From a bacterium (GTDB lineage Bacteria > Patescibacteriota > Patescibacteriia > UBA9570), in NCBI GenBank assembly GCA_030698395.1, contig JAUYKW010000027.1, positions 3,174 through 67,173 on the forward strand: a stretch of DNA of 64,000 nucleotides. Direction: 5' to 3'. The first letter of the stretch is position 1. Each line of letters opens with the position of its first letter. The notes below the pieces were generated by a model. The model was not told the origin of the DNA and did no database searches. It was given only the letters and a program-made list of their open reading frames with translations. Positions 29,543 through 52,290 of the stretch are shown here, piece after piece. The translations under genes and the position numbers were made by a program.

Positions 29543-29935
29543 TTATGTTTTCTGAGCTGCTACTTTTCTACCTGAACCCATTGTTCTTCTAACATTTCCT
29601 CGTACAGTTCTAGAATTTGTTTTCGTTGATTGTCCTCTTGAAGGAAGCTTCTTTGTGTGTCGAGTACCTCTATAAGCACCACTTTCTTTTAGTCTTTTTA
29701 CATTTGCAAGAACCTCTCTTCGTAAGTCCCCTTCAATAGCTACATTATTTTCTTGAATATGAGCTGTAATCTTACTAACTTCGTCTTCAGTTAAGTCTTT
29801 CGCCTTTACGTTAAGATCAATATCTACAGCAGACAAAATCTCTTTAGAACGGGTTAAGCCGATACCAAAAATATATGTGAGCGCAATTTCTGCTCTCTTA
29901 TTTGCCGGTAATGTTACACCTGATATTCTAGCCAT
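29543..29935 (-). CDS. rpsM: 30S ribosomal protein S13
   Basis: 130 aa. MARISGVTLPANKRAEIALTYIFGIG N-terminus. Confidence 0.9.
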   Translation of the reverse strand: MARISGVTLPANKRAEIALTYIFGIGLTRSKEILSAVDIDLNVKAKDLTEDEVSKITAHIQENNVAIEGDLRREVLANVKRLKESGAYRGTRHTKKLPSRGQSTKTNSRTVRGNVRRTMGSGRKVAAQKT

Positions 29936-29936
29936 A

Positions 29937-30050
29937 TTATCCCTGACGTTGTTTATGTTTAGGTAGTTTGCAAATTACAACAACTCGACCTTGTCTGCGT
30001 GTGACAGTACAATCCTTACACATTTTTTTTACTGAAGCTCTAACTTTCAT
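29937..30050 (-). CDS. rpmJ: 50S ribosomal protein L36
   Basis: Not in the ORF track (37 aa). Minus-strand translation [37 protein letters not shown] is canonical L36. ATG at 30048-30050, TAA at 29937-29939. 4-nt overlap with infA. Confidence 0.85.
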
Positions 30051-30316
30051 GAATATCTATATGTAATTCTACCTTTTGTTAAATCGTACGGAGTCATTTC
30101 CAATTTCACTTTATCTCCAGGCAATACTTTTATCCGATATCGCTTCATTTTTCCTGATAAAATTCCCAATACGGGCTCTCCATTTTCCAACGTCACTCTG
30201 CACATATAATTGGGTAACAGCTCTGTAACTTCACCCTCAATCTCTATAAAGCCTTTTTTTGTAGCTTTCGCCTGAAGTTTGTCTGAATAGTTCGCTTTGT
30301 CTTTTTTGTTAGACAT
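30047..30316 (-). CDS. infA: translation initiation factor IF-1
   Basis: 89 aa S1-like OB fold (…[16 protein letters not shown]…[10 protein letters not shown]). Sits in the canonical infA-rpmJ-rpsM-rpsK-rpsD-rpoA-rplQ order. Confidence 0.9.
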
Positions 30317-30418
30317 TAAAAAAATTGTATCTACTACTAATTGTTATGTAGATGGATTAGTTTTGCTGGCTATATTGTCAATTTCACCCCTAATTCTTGT
30401 AGTCAGACAGCAAGCGCT

Positions 30419-30447
30419 ATTATACGAAGATGTTTGAATAGTGTCAA
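30419..30447 (-). promoter_or_regulatory. sigma70-type promoter, perfect consensus TTGACA-17 nt-TATAAT, reading toward infA
   Basis: On the minus strand, TTGACA (plus 30442-30447) is followed by a 17-nt spacer and TATAAT (plus 30419-30424), with an A/T-rich UP-like stretch upstream. It sits about 100 nt upstream of the infA start, in the 207-nt gap between alaS and infA. Confidence 0.5.
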
Positions 30448-30523
30448 TAATAAAGCTTCAATTAACTGTGGATAAGTAATAAAAGTCACAAAAAATTACT
30501 CACTGCTATATAATATTACTGAT

Positions 30524-32305
30524 CTACTCGTCTTCAGTATCCGCTTTTACAACCGCTTTAATTCGCCTTACACCAGCACTACAAGCTTTTTCTTTTAGTA
30601 TTTTAAACTTACCAACTTCTTTAGTGTTATTTACATGAGGTCCACCACAAAATTCCTTAGAAAAGTCCCCTATAATGTAGACTTTCACACGATCTGCGTA
30701 CTTCTCATCAAATAAGCCAATAGCTCCCATTTTTTTTGCTTCATCAACAGTCATTATCTTATAATGTACATCTAGCCCTTCCTGAATTTTTTCATTTACC
30801 ATATCTTCGACGGCCTTTACCTGTTCATCAGTAAGTTTGTCTGGATGAGAAAAATCAAAACGAACTCTCTCTGGCGTGATGTTAGACCCTCTTTGCAAGA
30901 CATGCTCACCCAATACTCTTCGCAATGATTCCTGCAGTAAATGAGTTGCCGTATGTCCTCTAATAGTCTCCCAAGATGCATCTGCCAATCCACCTTTAAA
31001 GCGTTTCTGGGCACCAGCTCGAGATGTTTCCTGATGTTGCAGATAAAACTCATCAAAACCTTCTTCATCTATCACAATACCTTTTTCTGCTGCTAGTTCT
31101 TTTGATATCTCTAATGGAAACCCATATGTATCGAACAAATGAAAAGCATGTTCACCTGGCATGATATCATTTGCTTTTAAATGCTTAGTTAACTTCTGAA
31201 ACTGTTTTTCACCAGATTTTAAAGTTTTTTCAAACTTTTCTTCTTCATTAACAATCTCCATTTTAATTTCAGATCTATTTTTTTCCAACTCTGGATAAAA
31301 CTCACCGTACTCAGCGATGACAATATCAGCAATATCTTGTAAAAAGAAATCTGTAATTCCTAATTTCCTGCCATGTCTAACCGATCGTCTAATTAATCTT
31401 CTTAATACATAACCTTGATCAACATTTGATGGGCTTACACCATCGGCAATAATAAAAGTTGCGGCCCGCATGTGATCACAGATAATTTCTTTTGATGTAT
31501 CTTCATGATAAACTGCCAATTCAGTTATCTTATCCATTATTGGCACAAAAAGATCAGTTGTATATACCTCCTCCTTACCGTTCAATATAGCAGTTACCCG
31601 TTCCAATCCCATGCCAGTATCAACATTCTTTTGTTTTAATGGTGCATATGTTCCATCCTCAAGTTTATTGAACTCCATAAAAACATCATTCCAAATTTCT
31701 ACATACTTACCACAAGAACAACTCGGCTCGCAAGTAGGGCTACATTCTTGTAATCCAGTATCATAAAACATTTCAGTATCTGGTCCACATGGTCCTGTTG
31801 CACCAGCCGGACCCCACCAATTTTCTGATTTTGGATAATAATATATATGATCACCAGGCACGCCAAGATTTCGCCAAATCCGTGCAGATTCTTCATCTCG
31901 AGGTGCATCATCATCGCCTGCAAATACACTAACAGACAACTTACTCTTTGGGATATTTAGCCATTCTTCGCTAGTAAGAAATTCATAACTCATTGCAATC
32001 GCTTCTTCCTTAAAATAGTCACCCAACGACCAATTTCCCAACATTTCAAAAAATGTCAGATGCCATCTATCCCCCACTTCTTCGATATCGCCTGTTCTAA
32101 TGCATTTCTGAACATTCGTTAATCTTACTCCGGCTGGATGTGTTTCTCCCATTAAATAAGGGATTAAAGGATGCATTCCGGCAGTTGTAAATAATACCGT
32201 AGGATCATGCTCCGGAATTAAAGACGCTGAACCAATTGTTGAATGTTCTTTCTGTGAAAAAAATGCTAAATATTTGCTACGAATTTCTTTAGATGTAATG
32301 CTCAT
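30524..32305 (-). CDS. alaS: alanyl-tRNA synthetase, catalytic plus editing domains, no C-Ala domain
   Basis: 593 aa. N-terminal class II AlaRS core (FTTAGMHPLIPYL...), editing-domain HxxxH (GHTATHLL) and CxxxH (FCGGPHV) motifs. Ends after the editing domain. Confidence 0.85.
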   Translation of the reverse strand: MSITSKEIRSKYLAFFSQKEHSTIGSASLIPEHDPTVLFTTAGMHPLIPYLMGETHPAGVRLTNVQKCIRTGDIEEVGDRWHLTFFEMLGNWSLGDYFKEEAIAMSYEFLTSEEWLNIPKSKLSVSVFAGDDDAPRDEESARIWRNLGVPGDHIYYYPKSENWWGPAGATGPCGPDTEMFYDTGLQECSPTCEPSCSCGKYVEIWNDVFMEFNKLEDGTYAPLKQKNVDTGMGLERVTAILNGKEEVYTTDLFVPIMDKITELAVYHEDTSKEIICDHMRAATFIIADGVSPSNVDQGYVLRRLIRRSVRHGRKLGITDFFLQDIADIVIAEYGEFYPELEKNRSEIKMEIVNEEEKFEKTLKSGEKQFQKLTKHLKANDIMPGEHAFHLFDTYGFPLEISKELAAEKGIVIDEEGFDEFYLQHQETSRAGAQKRFKGGLADASWETIRGHTATHLLQESLRRVLGEHVLQRGSNITPERVRFDFSHPDKLTDEQVKAVEDMVNEKIQEGLDVHYKIMTVDEAKKMGAIGLFDEKYADRVKVYIIGDFSKEFCGGPHVNNTKEVGKFKILKEKACSAGVRRIKAVVKADTEDE

Positions 32306-32562: not shown

Positions 32563-33665
32563 GAAGATATATTTAATTCTCGTTTTTTAATCTCTGCTCC
32601 ACCTATTACTGTAGCACCATCATAGAACACTGCAAACTGCCCAGGAGTAACAGCACGTTCTGCTTCATGTAAAAGAACTTTGCTACCATCAATAGTACAA
32701 GGCACATCCGGAGAACGATAGCGCACCTTTACAGTACAATCAAACTTATCTGCTGGTCTATTTCCTGCTATCCAAAAATCATCCTCAATTGTAAACCAAG
32801 TTGATAACAAACTAGGATGATCGGTGCCCTGACAAATTATTAAAGTATTATTTTTAATATCTTTTTCCACTACAAAATATGGTCCTGTACCACCTATTTC
32901 CAATCCATACCGCTGTCCAATAGTATAATACGCCAACCCTTTATGTTCGCCCATATTTTTTCCCTCCACAGTAATCATGGATCCCGGTTTATGCGGTACG
33001 TATTGCTCCAAAAAAGTCCGAAATTCAATATCTCCAATAAAACATAATCCTTGACTATCCTTTTTATCAGCAACCGGCAAATTATAAGCCTGAGCTGCTT
33101 TTCTTACGTCTGTTTTCTGCATATGCCCAATTGGGAACAAAATTTTTGATAGCTGTTCTTGAGTAAGATGATAAATAAAATATGTTTGATCTTTATTTGC
33201 ATCTGCTCCCCTTTTCAATTGCCACATACCACTCTCGTTCTGTGAAACTTGAGCATGATGACCTGTTGCTACCTTATCAAATCCAGCTACCTCTGCTTTT
33301 TTTAAAAATGACTTAAATTTTATTTCAGTGTTGCACATTACATCAGGATTAGGTGTTTTTCCTTTTTTATACTCAGATAAAAAATACTCAAACACCTTAT
33401 CTCTATATTCTCGTTCAAAATTTATAATTTCACATGGTATGTTTAGAGTTTTACAAATTTCCTGTACATCTTCATATTCTTCTAACCAAGGACACTCATC
33501 TTTTCGATAGTTTACTTCTCCTACATCGGTCCAATTTTTCATATAATATCCAGTCACATCATAACCTTGCTCCACCAATATTGCGGCTGCCACGGCAGAG
33601 TCCACGCCGCCACTAAGAGCGACTGCAACCTTATTGTGATTTCTATTATCGTGTGCTATAGTCAT
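32559..33665 (-). CDS. mnmA: tRNA-specific 2-thiouridylase MnmA
   Basis: 368 aa. PP-loop SGGVDSAV near the N-terminus, catalytic Cys residues, C-terminal beta-barrel. Confidence 0.9.
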
Positions 33666-33674
33666 ACGCGTACT

Positions 33675-34571
33675 ATGACTAAAAAGAATACAACTGTAAA
33701 GAAAAATACCCTCAAGCTAAAAGCTGGATTAGCTCAAATGCTTAAAGGTGGAGTGATTATGGATGTAGTAACTCCAGAACATGCAAAGATAGCTGAGGAT
33801 GCTGGAGCAGTTGCAGTAATGGCCCTAGAACGTGTACCAGCTGATATCAGAGCCACTGGTGGTGTTGCCAGAATGAGTGATCCAAAGTTGATTAAGCAAA
33901 TCATGAAAACAGTCTCTATTCCAGTAATGGCAAAGGTAAGAATTGGCCATTTCGTAGAGGCACAAATACTTGAATCACTAGGTGTAGACTACATTGATGA
34001 ATCAGAAGTTTTAACACCAGCAGACAATGATTATCATATTAACAAAAATATATTCGACGTCCCTTTTGTATGCGGATGCAGAAATCTAGGCGAGGCTTTA
34101 AGACGAATTAATGAAGGAGCTGCCATGATTAGAACAAAGGGTGAAGCTGGAACTGGCAATATTGTGGAAGCTGTAAAACATATCAGAACATTATCCGAAG
34201 GTATTGAGGCTATTCAACACATGAATGAATCGGGGTTAAAAAAGATGGCCGTAGAAATGCGTGTACCTGTTGAATTATTAAAACAGGTAAAAAAACTAGG
34301 TAGATTACCTGTTGTTAACTTCGCAGCTGGCGGTATAGCAACTCCGGCAGACGCTGCTTTAGCAATGCAATTGGGAGTTGATGGAGTATTTGTAGGTAGT
34401 GGAATATTCAAATCAAAAAATCCAACTAAAAGAGCAATGGCAATTGTAGAAGCAACAACTCATTATCAAGATCCAGATATTCTTGCAAAAATATCTGAGA
34501 ACCTAGGAGCACCTATGACCGGCATCGACATGGATGATGTTGCAGTCAAAATGGCAGAACGAGGAAACTAG
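33675..34571 (+). CDS. pdxS: pyridoxal 5'-phosphate synthase, lyase subunit PdxS
   Basis: Start is the ATG at 33675 (MTKKNT...). The track ORF from 33567 carries a 36-aa non-homologous leader that overlaps mnmA. Protein [13 protein letters not shown]...[20 protein letters not shown] is canonical PdxS. Confidence 0.9.
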
Positions 34572-35154: not shown

Positions 35155-36404
35155 TTATTGAATGCCCACTTCATTAGGCGTTCAGTTTCGGAAAATCTCG
35201 TCCATGGAGATGGCGAGCCAAAAAGTACGGTTATAACCTCCCTATCACCATCTTTCGCTTTCAATGCCAAACAATAAAGCGCCTCATCAAGATATCCCGT
35301 TTTACTACCTGTGATATATAAATCACTAGTCCTCATCAATTCATTTGTATTCTTAAAACTGTGCACTTCACCAGTATTCCTCGTGACAAAACTATATGAG
35401 GACGCCGCTGTATGTTCAAGCATCTGAGGTGACTTCATTATCAGGCGTACGAATTTAGCATAATCTGCAACAGTAGACTGATTCAAAGGATCTAATCCAG
35501 ATGGATCAGCAAAGGTTGTATTCTCTAAACCAAGTTCTTGAGCTTTAAGATTCATCATACCCACAAACTCTTCCTTGGAATATCCCGCATGATATACCAA
35601 AGCGTAAGCAGCATTATTTGCCGACCCTACAGTCATAGCGTACATCAAATCGTTCATAGATAAAATTTCTCCATTATTCATGCGTAAACGTGCGCCAATT
35701 TGATCAAATTGTGAATAATAAGTAACTTCTCTATCCAAATCCACATTATTTGAAAATAATACGTAAGCTGTCATCAGCTTTGTTAAAGATGCAATTGATC
35801 TTTTTTCCGTGGTATTTTTACCGTATAATTCTTCACCTGTAGCTTCATCAATAGCAATTACTGCTACGGCATTTATATCGCCTAAATCTTGATATTCGCT
35901 CTTTTTTATTGGTCCAATTGAATATCTTAAATCATCAAATACACCAACTATTGAGTATGGAAAATGCCACGCTGCCCTGACTCTGTTATTCACAGTATCT
36001 AAATATGTTGGCAAAGCAATCCACTCTTCCAGTGTGCCATCATAGTAATACACATTACGCTTATGCTCTGGATCCTCTGAGTAATCAAATGATAGCCAAA
36101 TTGGTTTATCAAAATATCCAACATTTTCAAAATCTATTTGATACAAAAACACATCAGATGCTGGCTCTAAATAGCTTGGTAATTCTGGATAAACAGCCTT
36201 TTTTCGTAACCAAAAGGGTGCCTCTCCTATAAAAGTATTAGGTTGTATTCCAACTGAAGCAGACTCTAACTGCAAGGTATAACCACGTGTCATAGTTTCT
36301 TCATCAAGAAAAACCTTATTGCTAAGTTGCTTTGCCGAAGCAGAAACTGGTAATACCAAAAGAACAAATGCAAAACTTAATGTTGCTATTTTAAACTTAA
36401 TCAT
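35142..36404 (-). CDS. D-alanyl-D-alanine carboxypeptidase (S11, PBP5/6-like) with extra N-terminal domain
   Basis: 420 aa. Signal peptide, about 170-aa N-terminal domain, then SxxK (SLTK), SxN (SANN) and KTG (KTGY) motifs. Confidence 0.75.
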   Translation of the reverse strand: MIKFKIATLSFAFVLLVLPVSASAKQLSNKVFLDEETMTRGYTLQLESASVGIQPNTFIGEAPFWLRKKAVYPELPSYLEPASDVFLYQIDFENVGYFDKPIWLSFDYSEDPEHKRNVYYYDGTLEEWIALPTYLDTVNNRVRAAWHFPYSIVGVFDDLRYSIGPIKKSEYQDLGDINAVAVIAIDEATGEELYGKNTTEKRSIASLTKLMTAYVLFSNNVDLDREVTYYSQFDQIGARLRMNNGEILSMNDLMYAMTVGSANNAAYALVYHAGYSKEEFVGMMNLKAQELGLENTTFADPSGLDPLNQSTVADYAKFVRLIMKSPQMLEHTAASSYSFVTRNTGEVHSFKNTNELMRTSDLYITGSKTGYLDEALYCLALKAKDGDREVITVLFGSPSPWTRFSETERLMKWAFNNYSW

Positions 36405-37168
36405 TATCCTGCAGAATTATTTGGATCGTATCCGTTATTGATTTCACTGCCATCCTCATGACCATCACCATCGGTATCTACCTTTAATGGATCGGTTTTA
36501 TGAGTTTTTACTTCATCATAATCTGTTATTCCGTCACCATCAGTGTCTGGAACATTTTCATCAGTTCCATATTTCTTTTCATCAATATCACGTAAACCAT
36601 CACCATCGGTATCCCGTTCATGTAAGGGTACATTTGTAACATCAGTCGTAGTGTCATCTTCAGAAACTGGCGTCTCCTCAGTTGTATTTTCCTCAATAAC
36701 AGCTTCCTCATCCTTCTGTTCTTCTTTAATATTTTCTTCTGTAGTTGTTGTAGTGGTTCCGTTAGAAAATGGATCCAATGATAAATAAAGCCAAATCCCA
36801 CCACCCACCAAAAGACCAACCACTATTAATACAACAAATAACATTATCAACTTCTGTGTCGCTGATAAAGTTTCTCGCTTAAACATATCCGATACTGCTT
36901 GATCTGGTTGTTCAAAAGTACCTGGTGGGCTAATGGATGCACCAGCATCGTTGTTTAATCCTGCAAATCCAGTTGATGGTTTTGATGGATGCTGCGGAGT
37001 TGTTGGCGGAGGTTGTGGTCCTAAAGATTGCGGTGGCATATATGCGGCTTGCCCCGGCGGAGATAGAGGTTGTGCTACCGCAGGTTGCTGCGGAGTTGTT
37101 GGCGGAGGTTGTGTTGTTGGTGGTACTGGCCCACCTGATTGCCCTCCGTCTGACGCATCTTCAAACAT
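36404..37168 (-). CDS. Pro/Thr-rich single-pass membrane protein with C-terminal thrombospondin type-3-like Ca-binding repeats
   Basis: Start is taken at the second Met (37168, MFEDASDGG...) so that it does not overlap the divergent kinase start. N-terminal PPTTQPPPTTPQ low complexity, TM (IMLFVVLIVVGLLVGGGIWL), poly-Thr/Glu linker, then 3 DTDGDGxxDxDE repeats. Confidence 0.5.
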   Translation of the reverse strand: MFEDASDGGQSGGPVPPTTQPPPTTPQQPAVAQPLSPPGQAAYMPPQSLGPQPPPTTPQHPSKPSTGFAGLNNDAGASISPPGTFEQPDQAVSDMFKRETLSATQKLIMLFVVLIVVGLLVGGGIWLYLSLDPFSNGTTTTTTEENIKEEQKDEEAVIEENTTEETPVSEDDTTTDVTNVPLHERDTDGDGLRDIDEKKYGTDENVPDTDGDGITDYDEVKTHKTDPLKVDTDGDGHEDGSEINNGYDPNNSAG

Positions 37169-37190
37169 GAAAAAAGTATAGCACAGATTG

Positions 37191-38861
37191 ATGTTTTGGT
37201 ATATAATTAATTCGATGGCAAAAAAACAAGGAGGCATCCTACAAAACCTTAAACTAACACAGAAAATATTCTTTATTTTTGTGTTAATGATTATCTTGGT
37301 GATTAATTCATGGGCATTTACTTTAACGACGGTACTAGATTTTCAAGAAAGTTTTTCCAAAGTAGAAACCTACGCATTTCCAAGTATTATTAAAACTTCA
37401 CAATTGAAAGATCATTTGCACATTGCATTGCTCGGTGTCTATAATTATATAAATACTGGTGATGAAGCGAGTAAACTAGTATACCAAGAGCAATTTACAG
37501 AAGCTATCAGAGCAGAATATGATTTGTTTCAGTTATCGGAAACATCAACAGATTTCATTTTCACACAACAATTTAACGAAAAATTATTAGCGATCTACAA
37601 TACAACTGATGAACTTGTAACTACATATGAGTTTGACCCTACATCTTCTGATGTTACAGAAAAATTAAGCCAATTGAATGGTTTAAGAGATGATTTTAAT
37701 ACATTTTTAAAGGATGAAATAACTACCCAAGTTGAACAACAAATTACCAATGCTAATGAGGGCATTAATTCTACAGTACAACAAATCCAATACTATTTAA
37801 TTGGTGTAGCAGTAATAGTTCTACTAATTATCATATTTATCTTGATTTTCATATCAAATAATATTACGAAGCCAGTAGCAATCTTAACTAAAGCAGCAGA
37901 AGAATTTGGTAAAGGTAAATTCGAAAAGGTTGAGATTAAGCATAATGATGAGCTGGGTCTATTTGCTAAGACGTTCAACAAAATGGCAAAAGATATTCAA
38001 TCTAGCCAAAAAGCATTGCAAGAAGAATTAGAAAAAACCAAAGAGCTAGATAGACAAAAATCTGAATTTCTTTCTGTGGCTGCTCATCAACTACGTACAC
38101 CTATGGCTGGTATCAGATGGGCCTCACAAATGCTATACGACGGAGACATGGGGAAACTTAACGAAGAACAAAAGCATCATCTAGGTGCAGGTTTGGATAA
38201 CATTAATAGAATGATCAAGTTAATTAATGATTTACTTGATGTCACAAAAATTGAAGAGCAAAAATTCAACTATACTTTTGTAAAAAGTGATATTACTTTA
38301 GCTGTTCAAGAAATTATAGACAGACTACAAGACCAAGCCAATGCCAAAAAGGTTAAAGTAACTCTAGATGCACCAAAAACATCTTTGTTGATTGAATTTG
38401 ATAAAGAAAAAATGGATATGGCATTGAACAACCTACTTGATAACGCAATAAAATACAGTAAACCAAGTGGACATGTTGACATTTCAATAAAAAAATCTAA
38501 GGATGGAATTGAATGTACGGTTCAAGATGATGGAATTGGAATTCCAGATAAGTCTCAAAATGAAGTATTTACGAAATTTTTTAGAGCTCCAAACGCTATG
38601 AAAGTATTCGCTGATGGCAGTGGACTCGGACTATATATGTTACAAGATATTATACATAAACATGAAGGTAATATCTCGTTTAAATCTAAAGAAGGTGAAG
38701 GCACTTCGTTTACTTTTTACTTACCAAAAACTCAACTTATATCGAAAAACAACATCAAAGCAAAGATGCTTGTAAGTGACGAAAATCAGACAGAAAAAAA
38801 ATCTACTGACGACTCAGAAAATTCAGAAAGCACTGAAGAAAAAGTCGAAGAAGAGAGCTAA
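37191..38861 (+). CDS. sensor histidine kinase (orphan, no adjacent response regulator)
   Basis: About 555 aa. Two TM segments flank a ~150-aa sensor domain. HAMP domain. HisKA H-box SVAAHQLRTP. HATPase N-box (DNAIKYS), G1 (DDGIGIP) and G2 (GSGLGL). Start is the ATG at 37191 or 37215. Confidence 0.75.
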   Translation: MFWYIINSMAKKQGGILQNLKLTQKIFFIFVLMIILVINSWAFTLTTVLDFQESFSKVETYAFPSIIKTSQLKDHLHIALLGVYNYINTGDEASKLVYQEQFTEAIRAEYDLFQLSETSTDFIFTQQFNEKLLAIYNTTDELVTTYEFDPTSSDVTEKLSQLNGLRDDFNTFLKDEITTQVEQQITNANEGINSTVQQIQYYLIGVAVIVLLIIIFILIFISNNITKPVAILTKAAEEFGKGKFEKVEIKHNDELGLFAKTFNKMAKDIQSSQKALQEELEKTKELDRQKSEFLSVAAHQLRTPMAGIRWASQMLYDGDMGKLNEEQKHHLGAGLDNINRMIKLINDLLDVTKIEEQKFNYTFVKSDITLAVQEIIDRLQDQANAKKVKVTLDAPKTSLLIEFDKEKMDMALNNLLDNAIKYSKPSGHVDISIKKSKDGIECTVQDDGIGIPDKSQNEVFTKFFRAPNAMKVFADGSGLGLYMLQDIIHKHEGNISFKSKEGEGTSFTFYLPKTQLISKNNIKAKMLVSDENQTEKKSTDDSENSESTEEKVEEES

Positions 38862-38871
38862 AAAAATAATA

Positions 38872-39468
38872 CTAATTTAATTTTGCTAAGGTTATTTTAG
38901 CAAAATAGTCAAATTCAATATTCAATTTATCTCCTTTATTTACTGCTCCAAGAGTAGTGTTTTTTTGTGTAAAAGGAATGATCTTTACTGAAAAAATATC
39001 GTTATTAACATCCACAATCGTTAAATTTACTCCATCAATAGTAACACTTCCCTTTCTAATTAGATAATCGCTATATTTTGTAGGCACTTTCACTTCTAAG
39101 AATAGTTCACTCTTATTTGCATCTACATTATCAACTGTTCCCGCAACATCAATATGACCTGTGACAAAAGATCCTGAAATCTTTTTTTGTAAAGTAAGTG
39201 GACTTTCTGCATTTATTCTATCTCCAACACTAAGCAGACTCACTGTACTAACCTGCTGAGTCTCGTGCATATATTCAACTTTAATAACATCATCACTAAT
39301 ATCAGTTATTGTAGAACATACACCATTTAGCATGATACTATCGCCAATCCTATACTTCACCAATAATGGCTTTGACAATACTAACTCAAGAACTTCTGAA
39401 TCATCATCAGCTTTTAAAACAGAACCTTCTTTAACTAAAATAATTTCTTCTACAATTCCTGTAAACAT
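38872..39468 (-). CDS. ribE: riboflavin synthase
   Basis: 198 aa. MFTGIVEEI N-terminus and duplicated lumazine-binding barrel (second repeat begins GHIDVAGTV). Confidence 0.85.
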   Translation of the reverse strand: MFTGIVEEIILVKEGSVLKADDDSEVLELVLSKPLLVKYRIGDSIMLNGVCSTITDISDDVIKVEYMHETQQVSTVSLLSVGDRINAESPLTLQKKISGSFVTGHIDVAGTVDNVDANKSELFLEVKVPTKYSDYLIRKGSVTIDGVNLTIVDVNNDIFSVKIIPFTQKNTTLGAVNKGDKLNIEFDYFAKITLAKLN

Positions 39469-39836
39469 GATTTTACTTCGTTAATATCATTCGTAATAGC
39501 AAAAATTAGATCCTTAACATCAGAGAATTTTTGATAATCGCGTATTTTTTGCAACAGTTCTACCGATATTTCCTGCCCATAAAGATCACTATCAAAATCA
39601 AGAATATGTGCTTCTAATCTAATTTCATTATCACTAAATATTTCTACTGGTCCAATAAAAATTGCTGCTGGAAGCCGGTCATCCCCAACTGTAACTATTC
39701 CTGCAAAAACTCCAGTGGGGACACTTTTATCTACATCAATATTAACTGTAGGAAAGCCAAGCTCTCTACCTTTGCCAAGATTCCTCCTAACAATACCGGA
39801 ATAACTGATAATAGCTGTTATTTTTTTACAGGCTTT
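39450..39836 (-). CDS. riboflavin kinase domain ORF with no canonical start codon
   Basis: Not in the ORF track. Minus-strand frame is open from the TAA at 39837-39839 to the TAG at 39450-39452. It encodes ...YSGIVRRNLGKGRELGFPTVNIDVD...GVFAGIVTV...AAIFIGPVEIF...EAHILDFDSDLYGQEISVELLQKIRDYQKF, the RibF C-terminal riboflavin-kinase signature (GxxxGRxLGFPTaN). There is no in-frame ATG, GTG or TTG. It overlaps the ribE start by 19 nt and the upstream gene end by 19 nt. Confidence 0.5.
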   Translation of the reverse strand, partial: KACKKITAIISYSGIVRRNLGKGRELGFPTVNIDVDKSVPTGVFAGIVTVGDDRLPAAIFIGPVEIFSDNEIRLEAHILDFDSDLYGQEISVELLQKIRDYQKFSDVKDLIFAITNDINEVKSCLQEL

Positions 39837-40234
39837 TTAGCTCCACTTGATTTCTTTGATGCTGTTTTTTTTGCTACAATTTTCTTTGCAGATGTTGATC
39901 CTTTCTTCAATTCTTTATTAACATCTGCCCAGTGACTTTTTAAATCTTTTTTTAAAGAAGTAACTGTAGTTTCCGCAACTTTCTTCTTCTCTGCATATTC
40001 ATCAACAATTTGATCAACAATTTCATCATATTTTTTCTTTGACATATCTCTTGCCTTACTAACCTTATGCGATATATCTTTTGATAATTCTGATGCCGTC
40101 TGCTTTATCTTAACTGCAGCTTTTTTCCCTTGTTTTGTTTGCGTAAAAAAATAAGTAGCTGCTCCTGCTGCTAGCAATGCTCCAACTGCGGTACCTGCTG
40201 CAACTTTAACTTTCTTTTGAATATTGTGTCCCAT
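39818..40234 (-). CDS. small lysine-rich protein with N-terminal hydrophobic segment
   Basis: 138 aa. MGHNIQKKVKVAAGTAVGALLAAGAATYFF then K/E-rich helical low complexity, ending ...GAKKPVKK. Its TAA stop is preceded by an A7 run. Confidence 0.4.
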   Translation of the reverse strand: MGHNIQKKVKVAAGTAVGALLAAGAATYFFTQTKQGKKAAVKIKQTASELSKDISHKVSKARDMSKKKYDEIVDQIVDEYAEKKKVAETTVTSLKKDLKSHWADVNKELKKGSTSAKKIVAKKTASKKSSGAKKPVKK

Positions 40235-50743: not shown

Positions 50744-51262
50744 TTAGATTAATTTAGAAATGATTGCTTGGCAGAATGCTGGCAAATCATCTGGCTTACG
50801 AGAAGTTATTATATTACCATCAACGACAACTTCTTCATCTGAATAAATTCCGCCAGCATTAATTATGTCATCTGCAATTGCATCATAACAAGTACATTTT
50901 TTTCCCTGAATTATTCCTGCTGAAGCAAGCATCCATGCCCCATGACAGATTGATGCAACTAATTTACCAGCGGTATTCATATCTTTCACAAAATCTATCA
51001 TATCTCGATTCTTTCTCATCAAATCTGGAGCAAAACCACCTGGTATTAACACGGCATCAAATTCATCTATTTTTGCTTCCTTAATATCAATATCGCTTTC
51101 TACTGGATATCCATACTTACCCTTATACTTGTGAGCTTTTTTTATACCCACAATGACTGGTTTAATCCCTTCTTCACGTAGCCGATAGAATGGATACCAT
51201 AGCTCTAAATCCTGATATAGATCCTCAACTAATATTGCTACACGTTTATTTGATGATTCCAT
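50744..51262 (-). CDS. DJ-1/PfpI family protein
   Basis: 172 aa. Nucleophile elbow ICHGAWML. Confidence 0.8.
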   Translation of the reverse strand: MESSNKRVAILVEDLYQDLELWYPFYRLREEGIKPVIVGIKKAHKYKGKYGYPVESDIDIKEAKIDEFDAVLIPGGFAPDLMRKNRDMIDFVKDMNTAGKLVASICHGAWMLASAGIIQGKKCTCYDAIADDIINAGGIYSDEEVVVDGNIITSRKPDDLPAFCQAIISKLI

Positions 51263-51294
51263 AATTATTTATATAAATTAACTTATATATAATA

Positions 51295-52290
51295 TCACAA
51301 CTCTCTAATTGCGTGTTCAATCCTACGAGTTGCATCTTCATATGACTCTGATTTATCTACAAAATACAAAGGCTTGCCGAATTTTATTGATACTGAGTGT
51401 CTTTTAGAGAAAATGCTCTTTTTTGAACCATAGATAAATGCTGTTCCTTTTATTCTAACCGGAATAATTGGCACATTCATTAAAGATGCCATTAAACCAG
51501 CCCCTCTCTTAAATTCATTCATTGTATCGGAATGACTAACTCTACCTTCTGGAAACAAAGCCACAGACCAACCTCTGTCTAATAGAGCCCCCGTATAATT
51601 GAAACCAGATTTAATATCTTCATTTTCTTTACGAGGAAAAGGAAATGCATTAAAAAAAAGTTGTATTGCTGGCAGATATTTTCTAAATTCTCCAAAAATA
51701 GAATCCTTTGCAGCTGCATAGGCTAATCTATTTCTTACTTTTATATTCAATGCTGCCGATAAAAAAATACCATCAAATAGACTAATGTGATTAGACATGA
51801 TTATTACCGGATATTTCACGTCCTTAAAATTATCTTGATCTGCAACTTCTAATTTCGTCACTAATCTCATTAAAGGAAAGAAAAAAAAGCTCTGGCCCAC
51901 ATATCTTATTATCCTAGCAAATAGGCTTAATGGCCATTCCTTTATTTTTAATCTTTTTTCAACAGGATTCGCTACGTTAATTAAAGCCAATAAATCAGTA
52001 ACACTTGTTTTTGCTGTAATGTTAACTTCCGGAACTGTTACACCGAACACATCTTCAATTCTAGTAACCAATTCTATTCGTAAAATAGAATCTAACTGCA
52101 AATCACGCACTAATACTGTATCAGATGCAATATCTTTAGCATTAGTATCTGTAATTGCCGCTAGTAATGCAACTAGCTGGGGCAATTGTTCATCTTTCTG
52201 CATGGATACGTTTAATGATTTCACCTTTTTTAACTTTTCTGGTAGCTGATCGAGGAAAATCTTCCTCTTTCCAAACTGACCAGTTTGCAA
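51295..52290 (-). CDS. acyl-carrier-protein domain fused to PlsC-type lysophospholipid acyltransferase
   Basis: N-terminal ~80 aa carry an ACP-like DLQLDSILRIEL (DSL phosphopantetheine site). C-terminal domain carries the HxxxxD acyltransferase motif (NHISLFDG) and PEGR-like FPEGRVS. True start may be the ATG at 52203, which reduces the overlap with the ligase gene to 11 nt. Confidence 0.65.
   Translation of the reverse strand: MQTGQFGKRKIFLDQLPEKLKKVKSLNVSMQKDEQLPQLVALLAAITDTNAKDIASDTVLVRDLQLDSILRIELVTRIEDVFGVTVPEVNITAKTSVTDLLALINVANPVEKRLKIKEWPLSLFARIIRYVGQSFFFFPLMRLVTKLEVADQDNFKDVKYPVIIMSNHISLFDGIFLSAALNIKVRNRLAYAAAKDSIFGEFRKYLPAIQLFFNAFPFPRKENEDIKSGFNYTGALLDRGWSVALFPEGRVSHSDTMNEFKRGAGLMASLMNVPIIPVRIKGTAFIYGSKKSIFSKRHSVSIKFGKPLYFVDKSESYEDATRRIEHAIREL

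Follow-up and report, generated by a model that had tools for sequence, protein, structure and literature searches.

A riboflavin kinase reading frame without a canonical start codon, probably coupled to an upstream lysine-rich membrane protein gene, in a Patescibacteriota genome and its syntenic relatives

We examined a 64,000-nucleotide (nt) stretch of a Patescibacteriota genome (GenBank assembly GCA_030698395.1, contig JAUYKW010000027.1, positions 3,174 to 67,173; hereafter, the window) in which the reading frame for a riboflavin kinase, ribK, lacks a canonical start codon. The locus consists of three consecutive genes on the minus strand. The first (40234..39818) starts with ATG and encodes a 138-amino acid (aa) single-pass membrane protein, here termed K-rich, in which a hydrophobic N-terminal helix (AAGTAVGALLAAGAATYFF) is followed by a charged helical body and then by a tail rich in lysine. 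NCBI lists the same sequence as MDP3971212.1, a hypothetical protein from the metagenome-assembled genome (MAG) of an unclassified bacterium. K-rich can be described as YtxH-like, in that nine of nine K-rich family members gave weak matches to YtxH (PF12732; best E value, 1.1e-5), all under the gathering score. The open reading frame (ORF) of the K-rich gene ends in cct gta aaa aaa TAA, with the stop codon at 39820..39818. The ribK frame (39836..39450), which encodes a monofunctional riboflavin kinase, runs in the -1 frame relative to K-rich. A TAA at 39839..39837 closes it on the upstream side and a TAG at 39452..39450 ends it, giving 128 codons from stop to stop with the translation KACKKITAIISYSGIVRRNLGKGRELGFPTVNI...CLQEL. 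The third gene, ribE (39468..38872), encodes a riboflavin synthase with two lumazine-binding domains. Its ATG start sits 19 nt within the 3′ end of ribK, an overlap that is also found in four relatives of the locus (L082 to L085).

An earlier note on this DNA had claimed that ribK contains no in-frame ATG, GTG, or TTG from which translation could begin, and this was confirmed: the first such codon is a TTG at codon 95, deep within the kinase domain. The frame carries no gene call in the NCBI assembly or in an independent Logan assembly. Without a methionine start, unlike annotated monofunctional kinases, the window gene was never called. No other start-less gene was found in the window, where the remaining long frames poor in starts look like antisense shadows or cut-offs at the window ends. 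Start statistics were drawn from the 57 long ORFs of the window, 51 of which lack a Shine-Dalgarno (SD)-like tetramer (GGAG, GAGG, or AGGA at -20 to -4); the genome thus hardly uses SD sequences. An AGGAGG inside the ribK frame (codons R-R) was considered as an SD sequence and rejected, as the next in-frame codons are AAT CTT, which provide no start, and the only TTG is out of frame.

The same note had recognized a clear riboflavin kinase domain in ribK, and profile searches agree. Flavokinase (PF01687; curated Pfam cutoff, 19.6 bits) matches residues 11-124 with 106.5 bits and an E value of 1.4e-30, covering profile positions 6-123 of 124 and hence the complete domain; NCBIfam ribF models match through their C-terminal kinase part only (from about 172-200 to about 290-320). 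The motifs GFPTVN, EAHILDF, and KIRD are present, and all 18 invariant columns in an alignment of the window protein with 12 relatives are retained, including GFPTxN, E-A-H-I-L-D-F, and K-I-R. The 128-codon frame is intact, with none of the internal stops, frameshifts, or lost conserved residues that would mark a pseudogene. Measured against the relatives, the proportion of nonsynonymous differences (pN) is 0.36-0.41 versus 0.68-0.80 for synonymous differences (pS). This sequence comparison shows long-term purifying selection on window ribK, and since synonymous divergence (dS) is saturated, dN/dS cannot date a possible recent inactivation. Counted from the ATT discussed below, the product would probably be ~120 aa, and ribK probably functions as a gene of its own, encoding a monofunctional riboflavin kinase. 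A tblastn search of the 64-kb window with partial probes, which are weak ones, returned no match to a flavin mononucleotide (FMN) adenylyltransferase (FAD_syn) domain. We also considered whether ribK might be the N-terminally truncated remnant of a bifunctional RibF. This was rejected, as the frame is closed just upstream (6 codons before the ATA that overlaps the K-rich stop), the neighboring gene is conserved and unrelated, and monofunctional kinases of 110-125 aa are normal in relatives. A GTDB genome scan with RibK was saturated because the EAHILDF motif is universal. It gave no close relative (best, 43% identity among the matches listed), and the matches listed include standalone ATG-start RibK genes in other Patescibacteria and an EamA::RibK fusion (L041). 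No relevant publication emerged from literature searches on riboflavin kinases of the candidate phyla radiation or on the start codons and SD sequences that Patescibacteria use.

Fourteen syntenic relatives (L082 to L095) were read, so that with the window the comparison spans 15 loci; their contigs came from K-rich family matches, a metagenome scan, and two truncated RibK matches, and L090 and L092 share the same junction sequence. The K-rich family is small, its members sharing 51-66% identity with the window protein. Where the flank suffices, the gene order is NAD kinase, Ham1, beta-CASP hydrolase, K-rich, ribK, and ribE, followed by a histidine kinase on the opposite strand. K-rich is followed by ribK at 15 of 15 loci, and ribK is a standalone gene in each of the 14 relatives. 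The earlier note had looked to orthologues for a standalone ribK with an ATG start and no K-rich partner; the first part of this picture held, whereas GTG or TTG took the place of ATG, and a K-rich partner, far from being absent, always lies upstream.

Distances from stop to start were counted in nt from the K-rich stop codon. Eight of the 14 relatives have a canonical ribK start: GTG at +8 in L082 and L086, at +7 in L084, and at -4 in L085, where it overlaps the stop codon TGA as GTGA, and TTG at +1 in L090, L091, L092, and L093. None of the eight is ATG and none is preceded by an SD sequence. Given that ATG starts 51 of the 57 long ORFs in the window, weak, stop-adjacent starts are a trait of ribK. 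Canonical starts at -4 to +8 without an SD sequence are, on the pattern of these junctions, the geometry of translational coupling.

The other seven loci, namely the window and six relatives, have no canonical start at the junction. The window offers ATA at -4 (39821..39819), ATT at +5 (39812..39810), and ATC at +8 (39809..39807). Among the relatives, ATT occurs at -1 in L083 (as TAATT), at +1 in L089 (a locus with an N gap), and at +4 in L094; ATC occurs at +7 in L087, and ATA at -4 in L095 (as ATAG). An ATT, ATC, or ATA therefore falls within -4 to +8 at six of the seven start-less loci (five of the six relatives). At L088, the junction holds no start-like codon, the only GTG being inside the K-rich gene at -41. 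The ribK calls in the start-less relatives measure 102 aa (L083), 81 aa (L087), 93 aa (L088), 98 aa (L094), and 69 aa (L095), and L089 has none. As read from these 15 junctions, the missing canonical start is a recurrent clade property of ribK and no accident of one assembly.

Among the three possibilities raised in the earlier note, the comparative data favor an independent ribK initiated at a noncanonical AUA or AUU codon. With moderate confidence, we regard the following as the best explanation of the locus: ribK stands alone, its translation is coupled to that of the K-rich gene, and it is initiated at a near-cognate codon. Under this proposal, ribosomes terminating at the K-rich UAA would go on to translate ribK from a near-cognate isoleucine codon a few nt away. 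AUU (+5) or AUC (+8) would be the most likely start, the alternative being the AUA that overlaps the stop (AUAA), and ribosomes that load afresh at the junction, which is rich in A and unstructured, possibly add to those that reinitiate. Both the codon actually used and the delivery of ribosomes by reinitiation are points that we infer. An ancestral weak GTG start would have mutated to GCT, and we propose that ribK expression would therefore be low and tied to the upstream gene.

The alignment of the junctions points in this direction. The window sequence GCT-ATT-ATC-AGT-TAT-TCC-GGT corresponds to GTG-ATT-GCC-ACA-TAT-TCC-GGT in L085 and to GTG-ATT-GCA-ACG-TAT-ACC-GGT in L084. So aligned, GCT occupies the place of the former start, and the closest near-cognate is the ATT that follows, the conserved second codon. 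The window ATT and ATC both fall in the -4 to +8 range used by the GTG and TTG starts of relatives. The ATA lies where the earlier note had placed it, overlapping the TAA of the K-rich gene as ATAA; this -4 overlap has the geometry of ATGA and GTGA, and it mirrors the GTGA of L085 and the ATAG of L095. Folding of 50-nt windows around starts and around internal sites of the genome showed that real starts are less structured (-3.7 versus -5.9 kcal/mol). The value for the ATT is -2.7 kcal/mol, with 56% A upstream, which is the median for real starts and ranks at the 89th percentile among internal sites. Rich in A and low in structure, the surroundings of this ATT are typical of a start in an SD-poor genome.

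Four considerations weigh against near-cognate initiation at a coupled junction. First, ATH codons (ATT, ATC, or ATA) are also frequent at -4 to +11 in loci with GTG or TTG starts, owing to the conserved Ile-2; the presence of an ATH codon is therefore compatible with the proposal but non-discriminating, and unusable as a statistic. Second, L088 (656-760) has no ATG, GTG, TTG, CTG, ATT, ATC, or ATA in the stretch that leads from the K-rich stop to the kinase domain. As this locus offers only the GTG 41 nt upstream, near-cognate initiation is not the whole story for the clade. Third, near-cognate efficiency in Escherichia coli is low, roughly equal to or a few times above unstimulated slippage: AUA, AUC, and AUU initiate at roughly 0.1-3% of AUG, and the only confirmed natural cases are infC and pcnB, both of which use AUU (bioRxiv 10.1101/063800). 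Fourth, given the saturated dS, expression may have been lost recently in the window genome alone, although we judge this improbable.

That last point can be stated as an explanation in its own right, in which ribK has been recently silenced: the GTG start was lost, no useful translation remains, and FMN is obtained otherwise. The homologous start codon is indeed GCT in the window versus GTG in L084 and L085, neither NCBI nor Logan called a gene, and a recent relaxation would be invisible with dS saturated. Organisms of this kind also often have reduced metabolism. Set against silencing are the 128 codons that run without a stop at 35% GC with all invariant residues retained, and the intact downstream ribE, whose start lies within ribK. 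Moreover, seven separate lineages are start-less with intact ORFs, and since they share the missing canonical start, seven simultaneous very recent pseudogenes would be unlikely. We accordingly see silencing as an unlikely account. The near-cognate proposal can also be extended to the clade as a whole, in a form that we consider possible but doubtful. In that extension, ribK would routinely be expressed without a canonical start, post-termination ribosomes would reinitiate on AUU, AUC, or AUA, and L088 would do without a recognizable near-cognate, all of which would amount to a lineage-wide relaxation of start selection that keeps the kinase at trace level.

A different mechanism is suggested by the end of the K-rich gene itself. 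As the earlier note had described, an A_AAA_AAA heptamer lies in the zero frame (39827..39821) directly 5′ of the K-rich TAA, with ribK in the -1 frame, and beyond the heptamer that frame stays open for 123 codons and takes in the entire kinase domain. If ribosomes shifted by -1 there, or if RNA polymerase inserted one A, a membrane-anchored K-rich::RibK fusion would be the main or only kinase product. The heptamer is perfect in form, and a GGAG at 39844..39841, the sole potential frameshift stimulator found, lies 13 nt 5′ of it, a distance compatible with a stimulator of the dnaX type. Two other start-less loci, L083 (aca aaa aaa gga) and L095 (aag aaa aaa TAG), likewise have ribK in the -1 frame, open from an A6-A7 run, and membrane-protein::RibK fusions occur elsewhere in Patescibacteria, as in the EamA::Flavokinase of L041. 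The GGAG is absent in both L083 and L095.

The comparison of relatives speaks against this mechanism. L087, L088, L089, and L094 are equally start-less but have ribK in the +1 frame, and in L089 no more than 11 nt of the ribK frame are open ahead of the stop, and no A-run is seen there. Relative to K-rich, six of the 15 loci have ribK in the -1 frame and nine in the +1 frame, a split that no one frameshift mechanism can accommodate across the clade. Neither the heptamer nor the K/R tail that contains it is conserved: the slippery motif is missing or displaced in relatives, and while the K-rich body is conserved, the length of the tail varies by about 0-60 aa. Runs of A7 also occur in the tails of L084 and L085, which have GTG starts, and in L085 a stop interrupts the -1 path.

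Composition offers an origin for the motif. The window has a GC content of 35% and contains 34 runs of A7 or longer and 54 of T7 or longer (88 together). Within the K-rich gene there are six in-frame X_XXY_YYZ heptamers, three of which are A_AAA_AAA; after a slip, the other two of these would end in 9-codon dead ends and thus yield truncated products. The lysine tail is free of stops in all three frames. Given that an AAA/AAG lysine tail at 35% GC yields such runs automatically, the heptamer is no commoner than chance, and composition alone can place a textbook slippery heptamer beside a stop when a gene ends in such a tail. No stimulatory structure was found 5-9 nt 3′ of the heptamer: the 100 nt downstream fold with a minimum free energy of -19.9 kcal/mol versus a mean of -18.1 kcal/mol for 200 shuffles (z, -0.65), 51 of the 200 shuffles fold as well as the real sequence, and no stem begins near the heptamer. 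In E. coli, slippery heptamers without stimulators reach only 2-10 times the 0.055% background (PMC4066793).

A fused protein was also sought directly. The hypothetical 261-aa K-rich::RibK fusion was used as a query against 1.84 billion representative proteins, and the matches cover residues 1-138 or 142-261, with none matching both halves. Only one match fell below 1e-30, and it covers the K-rich half only. The longer RibK-containing matches that were inspected have other partners, which are cytidylyltransferase-like, NUDIX-like, or those of ordinary RibF architectures. The programmed -1 frameshift or slippage fusion put forward in the earlier note is thus not supported, in that the 14 relatives conserve neither the heptamer nor its position nor the frame, no downstream structure was found, and two more identical heptamers lie in the same gene. 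We give little credence to the fusion as the main or only kinase product, and an equally small chance to its being a minor by-product or a contributor in -1-frame members. In such members (the window, L083, and L095), slippage on the terminal A-run may add a membrane-tethered K-rich::RibK isoform to the standalone kinase.

The remaining suggestion of the earlier note, that a homopolymer error hides a simple fusion, can be weighed with the same data. Homopolymers are a classic site of indel errors, and a true run of A8 at 39827..39821, with just one extra A, would give a clean, plain 261-aa fusion gene. The independent Logan assembly L001 (run SRR13727534), which stems from the same population, is 100% identical to the NCBI MAG over 2537 nt without gaps and also reads A7, with the proviso that the two assemblies were possibly built from shared reads. 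No fused orthologue appears among the 1.84 billion representatives, and in 14 of 14 relatives a stop separates the two genes, whose relative frame varies. A sequencing or assembly error is therefore highly improbable, far more so than frameshifting or silencing. What probability remains after these alternatives and coupled near-cognate initiation we leave to mechanisms beyond those considered, as L088 warns.

Start erosion of this kind has a practical consequence for annotation. Where gene callers accept only ATG, GTG, and TTG, start-less ribK is missed or truncated in about half of the clade assemblies, and metabolic reconstructions would wrongly score such genomes as lacking FMN synthesis. 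Confirmed noncanonical starts are very rare in bacteria, and a ribK family that wanders among GTG, TTG, ATT, ATC, and ATA, never more than 8 nt from the upstream stop, provides a natural test set for the relaxation of start codons by termination-reinitiation in SD-poor bacteria. What is new here is the recurrent absence of a canonical start across a clade, with a clade-wide erosion of starts at what appears to be a tightly coupled junction and the resulting gap in annotation.

Several further observations were made along the way. L041 (3065-4351; Patescibacteria MAG JBGSUE010000043.1) is an uninterrupted 428-codon ORF with two EamA domains and a complete Flavokinase domain (Pfam E values, 3.8e-25 and 4.4e-30), and this fusion possibly couples uptake to phosphorylation. 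Two other RibK fusions, P0053 and P0098, are about 260 aa long. The N-terminal domain of P0053 is cytidylyltransferase-like (GVFDFLHPGH) and could be a non-RibF FMN adenylyltransferase, and that of P0098 is NUDIX-like. Within the window, the minus strand carries 53 of the 57 long ORFs, and no tRNA genes or Rfam families (at gathering thresholds) were found in its 64 kb. The minus-strand ORF at 36404-37342 has a long Pro/Gln/Thr-rich, low-complexity N-terminal region (PPTTQPPPTTPQQPAVAQPLSPPGQ) and 35 start-less codons before its first canonical start. The tightly packed gene array is interrupted by gaps of 0.6-0.9 kb that hold no long ORF, at 29935-30524, 33665-34534, and 51262-52190, the second of which is partly occupied by a plus-strand PdxS-like ORF with an ATG 27 codons into the frame.

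Four known systems provide points of comparison for the ribK junction. The -1 sites of dnaX and of insertion sequence (IS) elements combine A_AAA_AAG or A_AAA_AAA with SD-like and hairpin stimulators. The window shares with them a zero-frame heptamer, a -1 frame that encodes a functional domain, and a GGAG that precedes the heptamer by 13 nt. It differs in the lack of downstream structure, in a motif, position, and frame that are not conserved, in the repetition of the motif within the K-rich gene, and in a downstream ORF that stands alone in relatives. As a protein, window RibK resembles the monofunctional kinases of about 110-125 aa exemplified by Candidatus Moranbacteria P0005 in its domain, its length, and the position of its N-terminus, which precedes the S/T-G-x-V strand by two to six residues. 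Those kinases have annotated methionine starts, whereas the window gene has none.

Closer in arrangement are the termination-reinitiation pairs (ATGA, TAATG, and short gaps). Coupling via post-termination scanning across a few nt is covered in one review (PMC12548453). With these pairs, the ribK junctions share spacings of -4 to +8 nt, the lack of a downstream SD sequence, and conserved gene order (PMC6728339, PMC10666635, and PMC12548453). The pairs described in these sources use ATG, GTG, or TTG, whereas about half of the ribK clade has no canonical start at the junction. Finally, E. coli infC begins 3 nt past the stop of thrS (UAA GGU AUU) and is translated by both reinitiation and de novo initiation, and A/U-rich leaders are known to raise translation independently of the SD sequence and start codon (PMC3592434). 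Like infC, window ribK has a near-cognate AUH codon a few nt past the stop of the upstream cistron and an A/U-rich leader (PMC3592434; bioRxiv 10.1101/063800). The output of infC is low or limited and mixes reinitiation with de novo initiation, and we propose the same for window ribK. The infC AUU, however, is strictly conserved, serves IF3 autoregulation, and has an SD sequence, whereas the ribK codon varies among relatives (GTG, TTG, ATT, ATC, ATA, or none), has no SD sequence, and is not known to serve a regulatory circuit. By these analogies, an infC-type junction is the closest match to the window locus, and programmed frameshift sites of the dnaX or IS type are the most distant.

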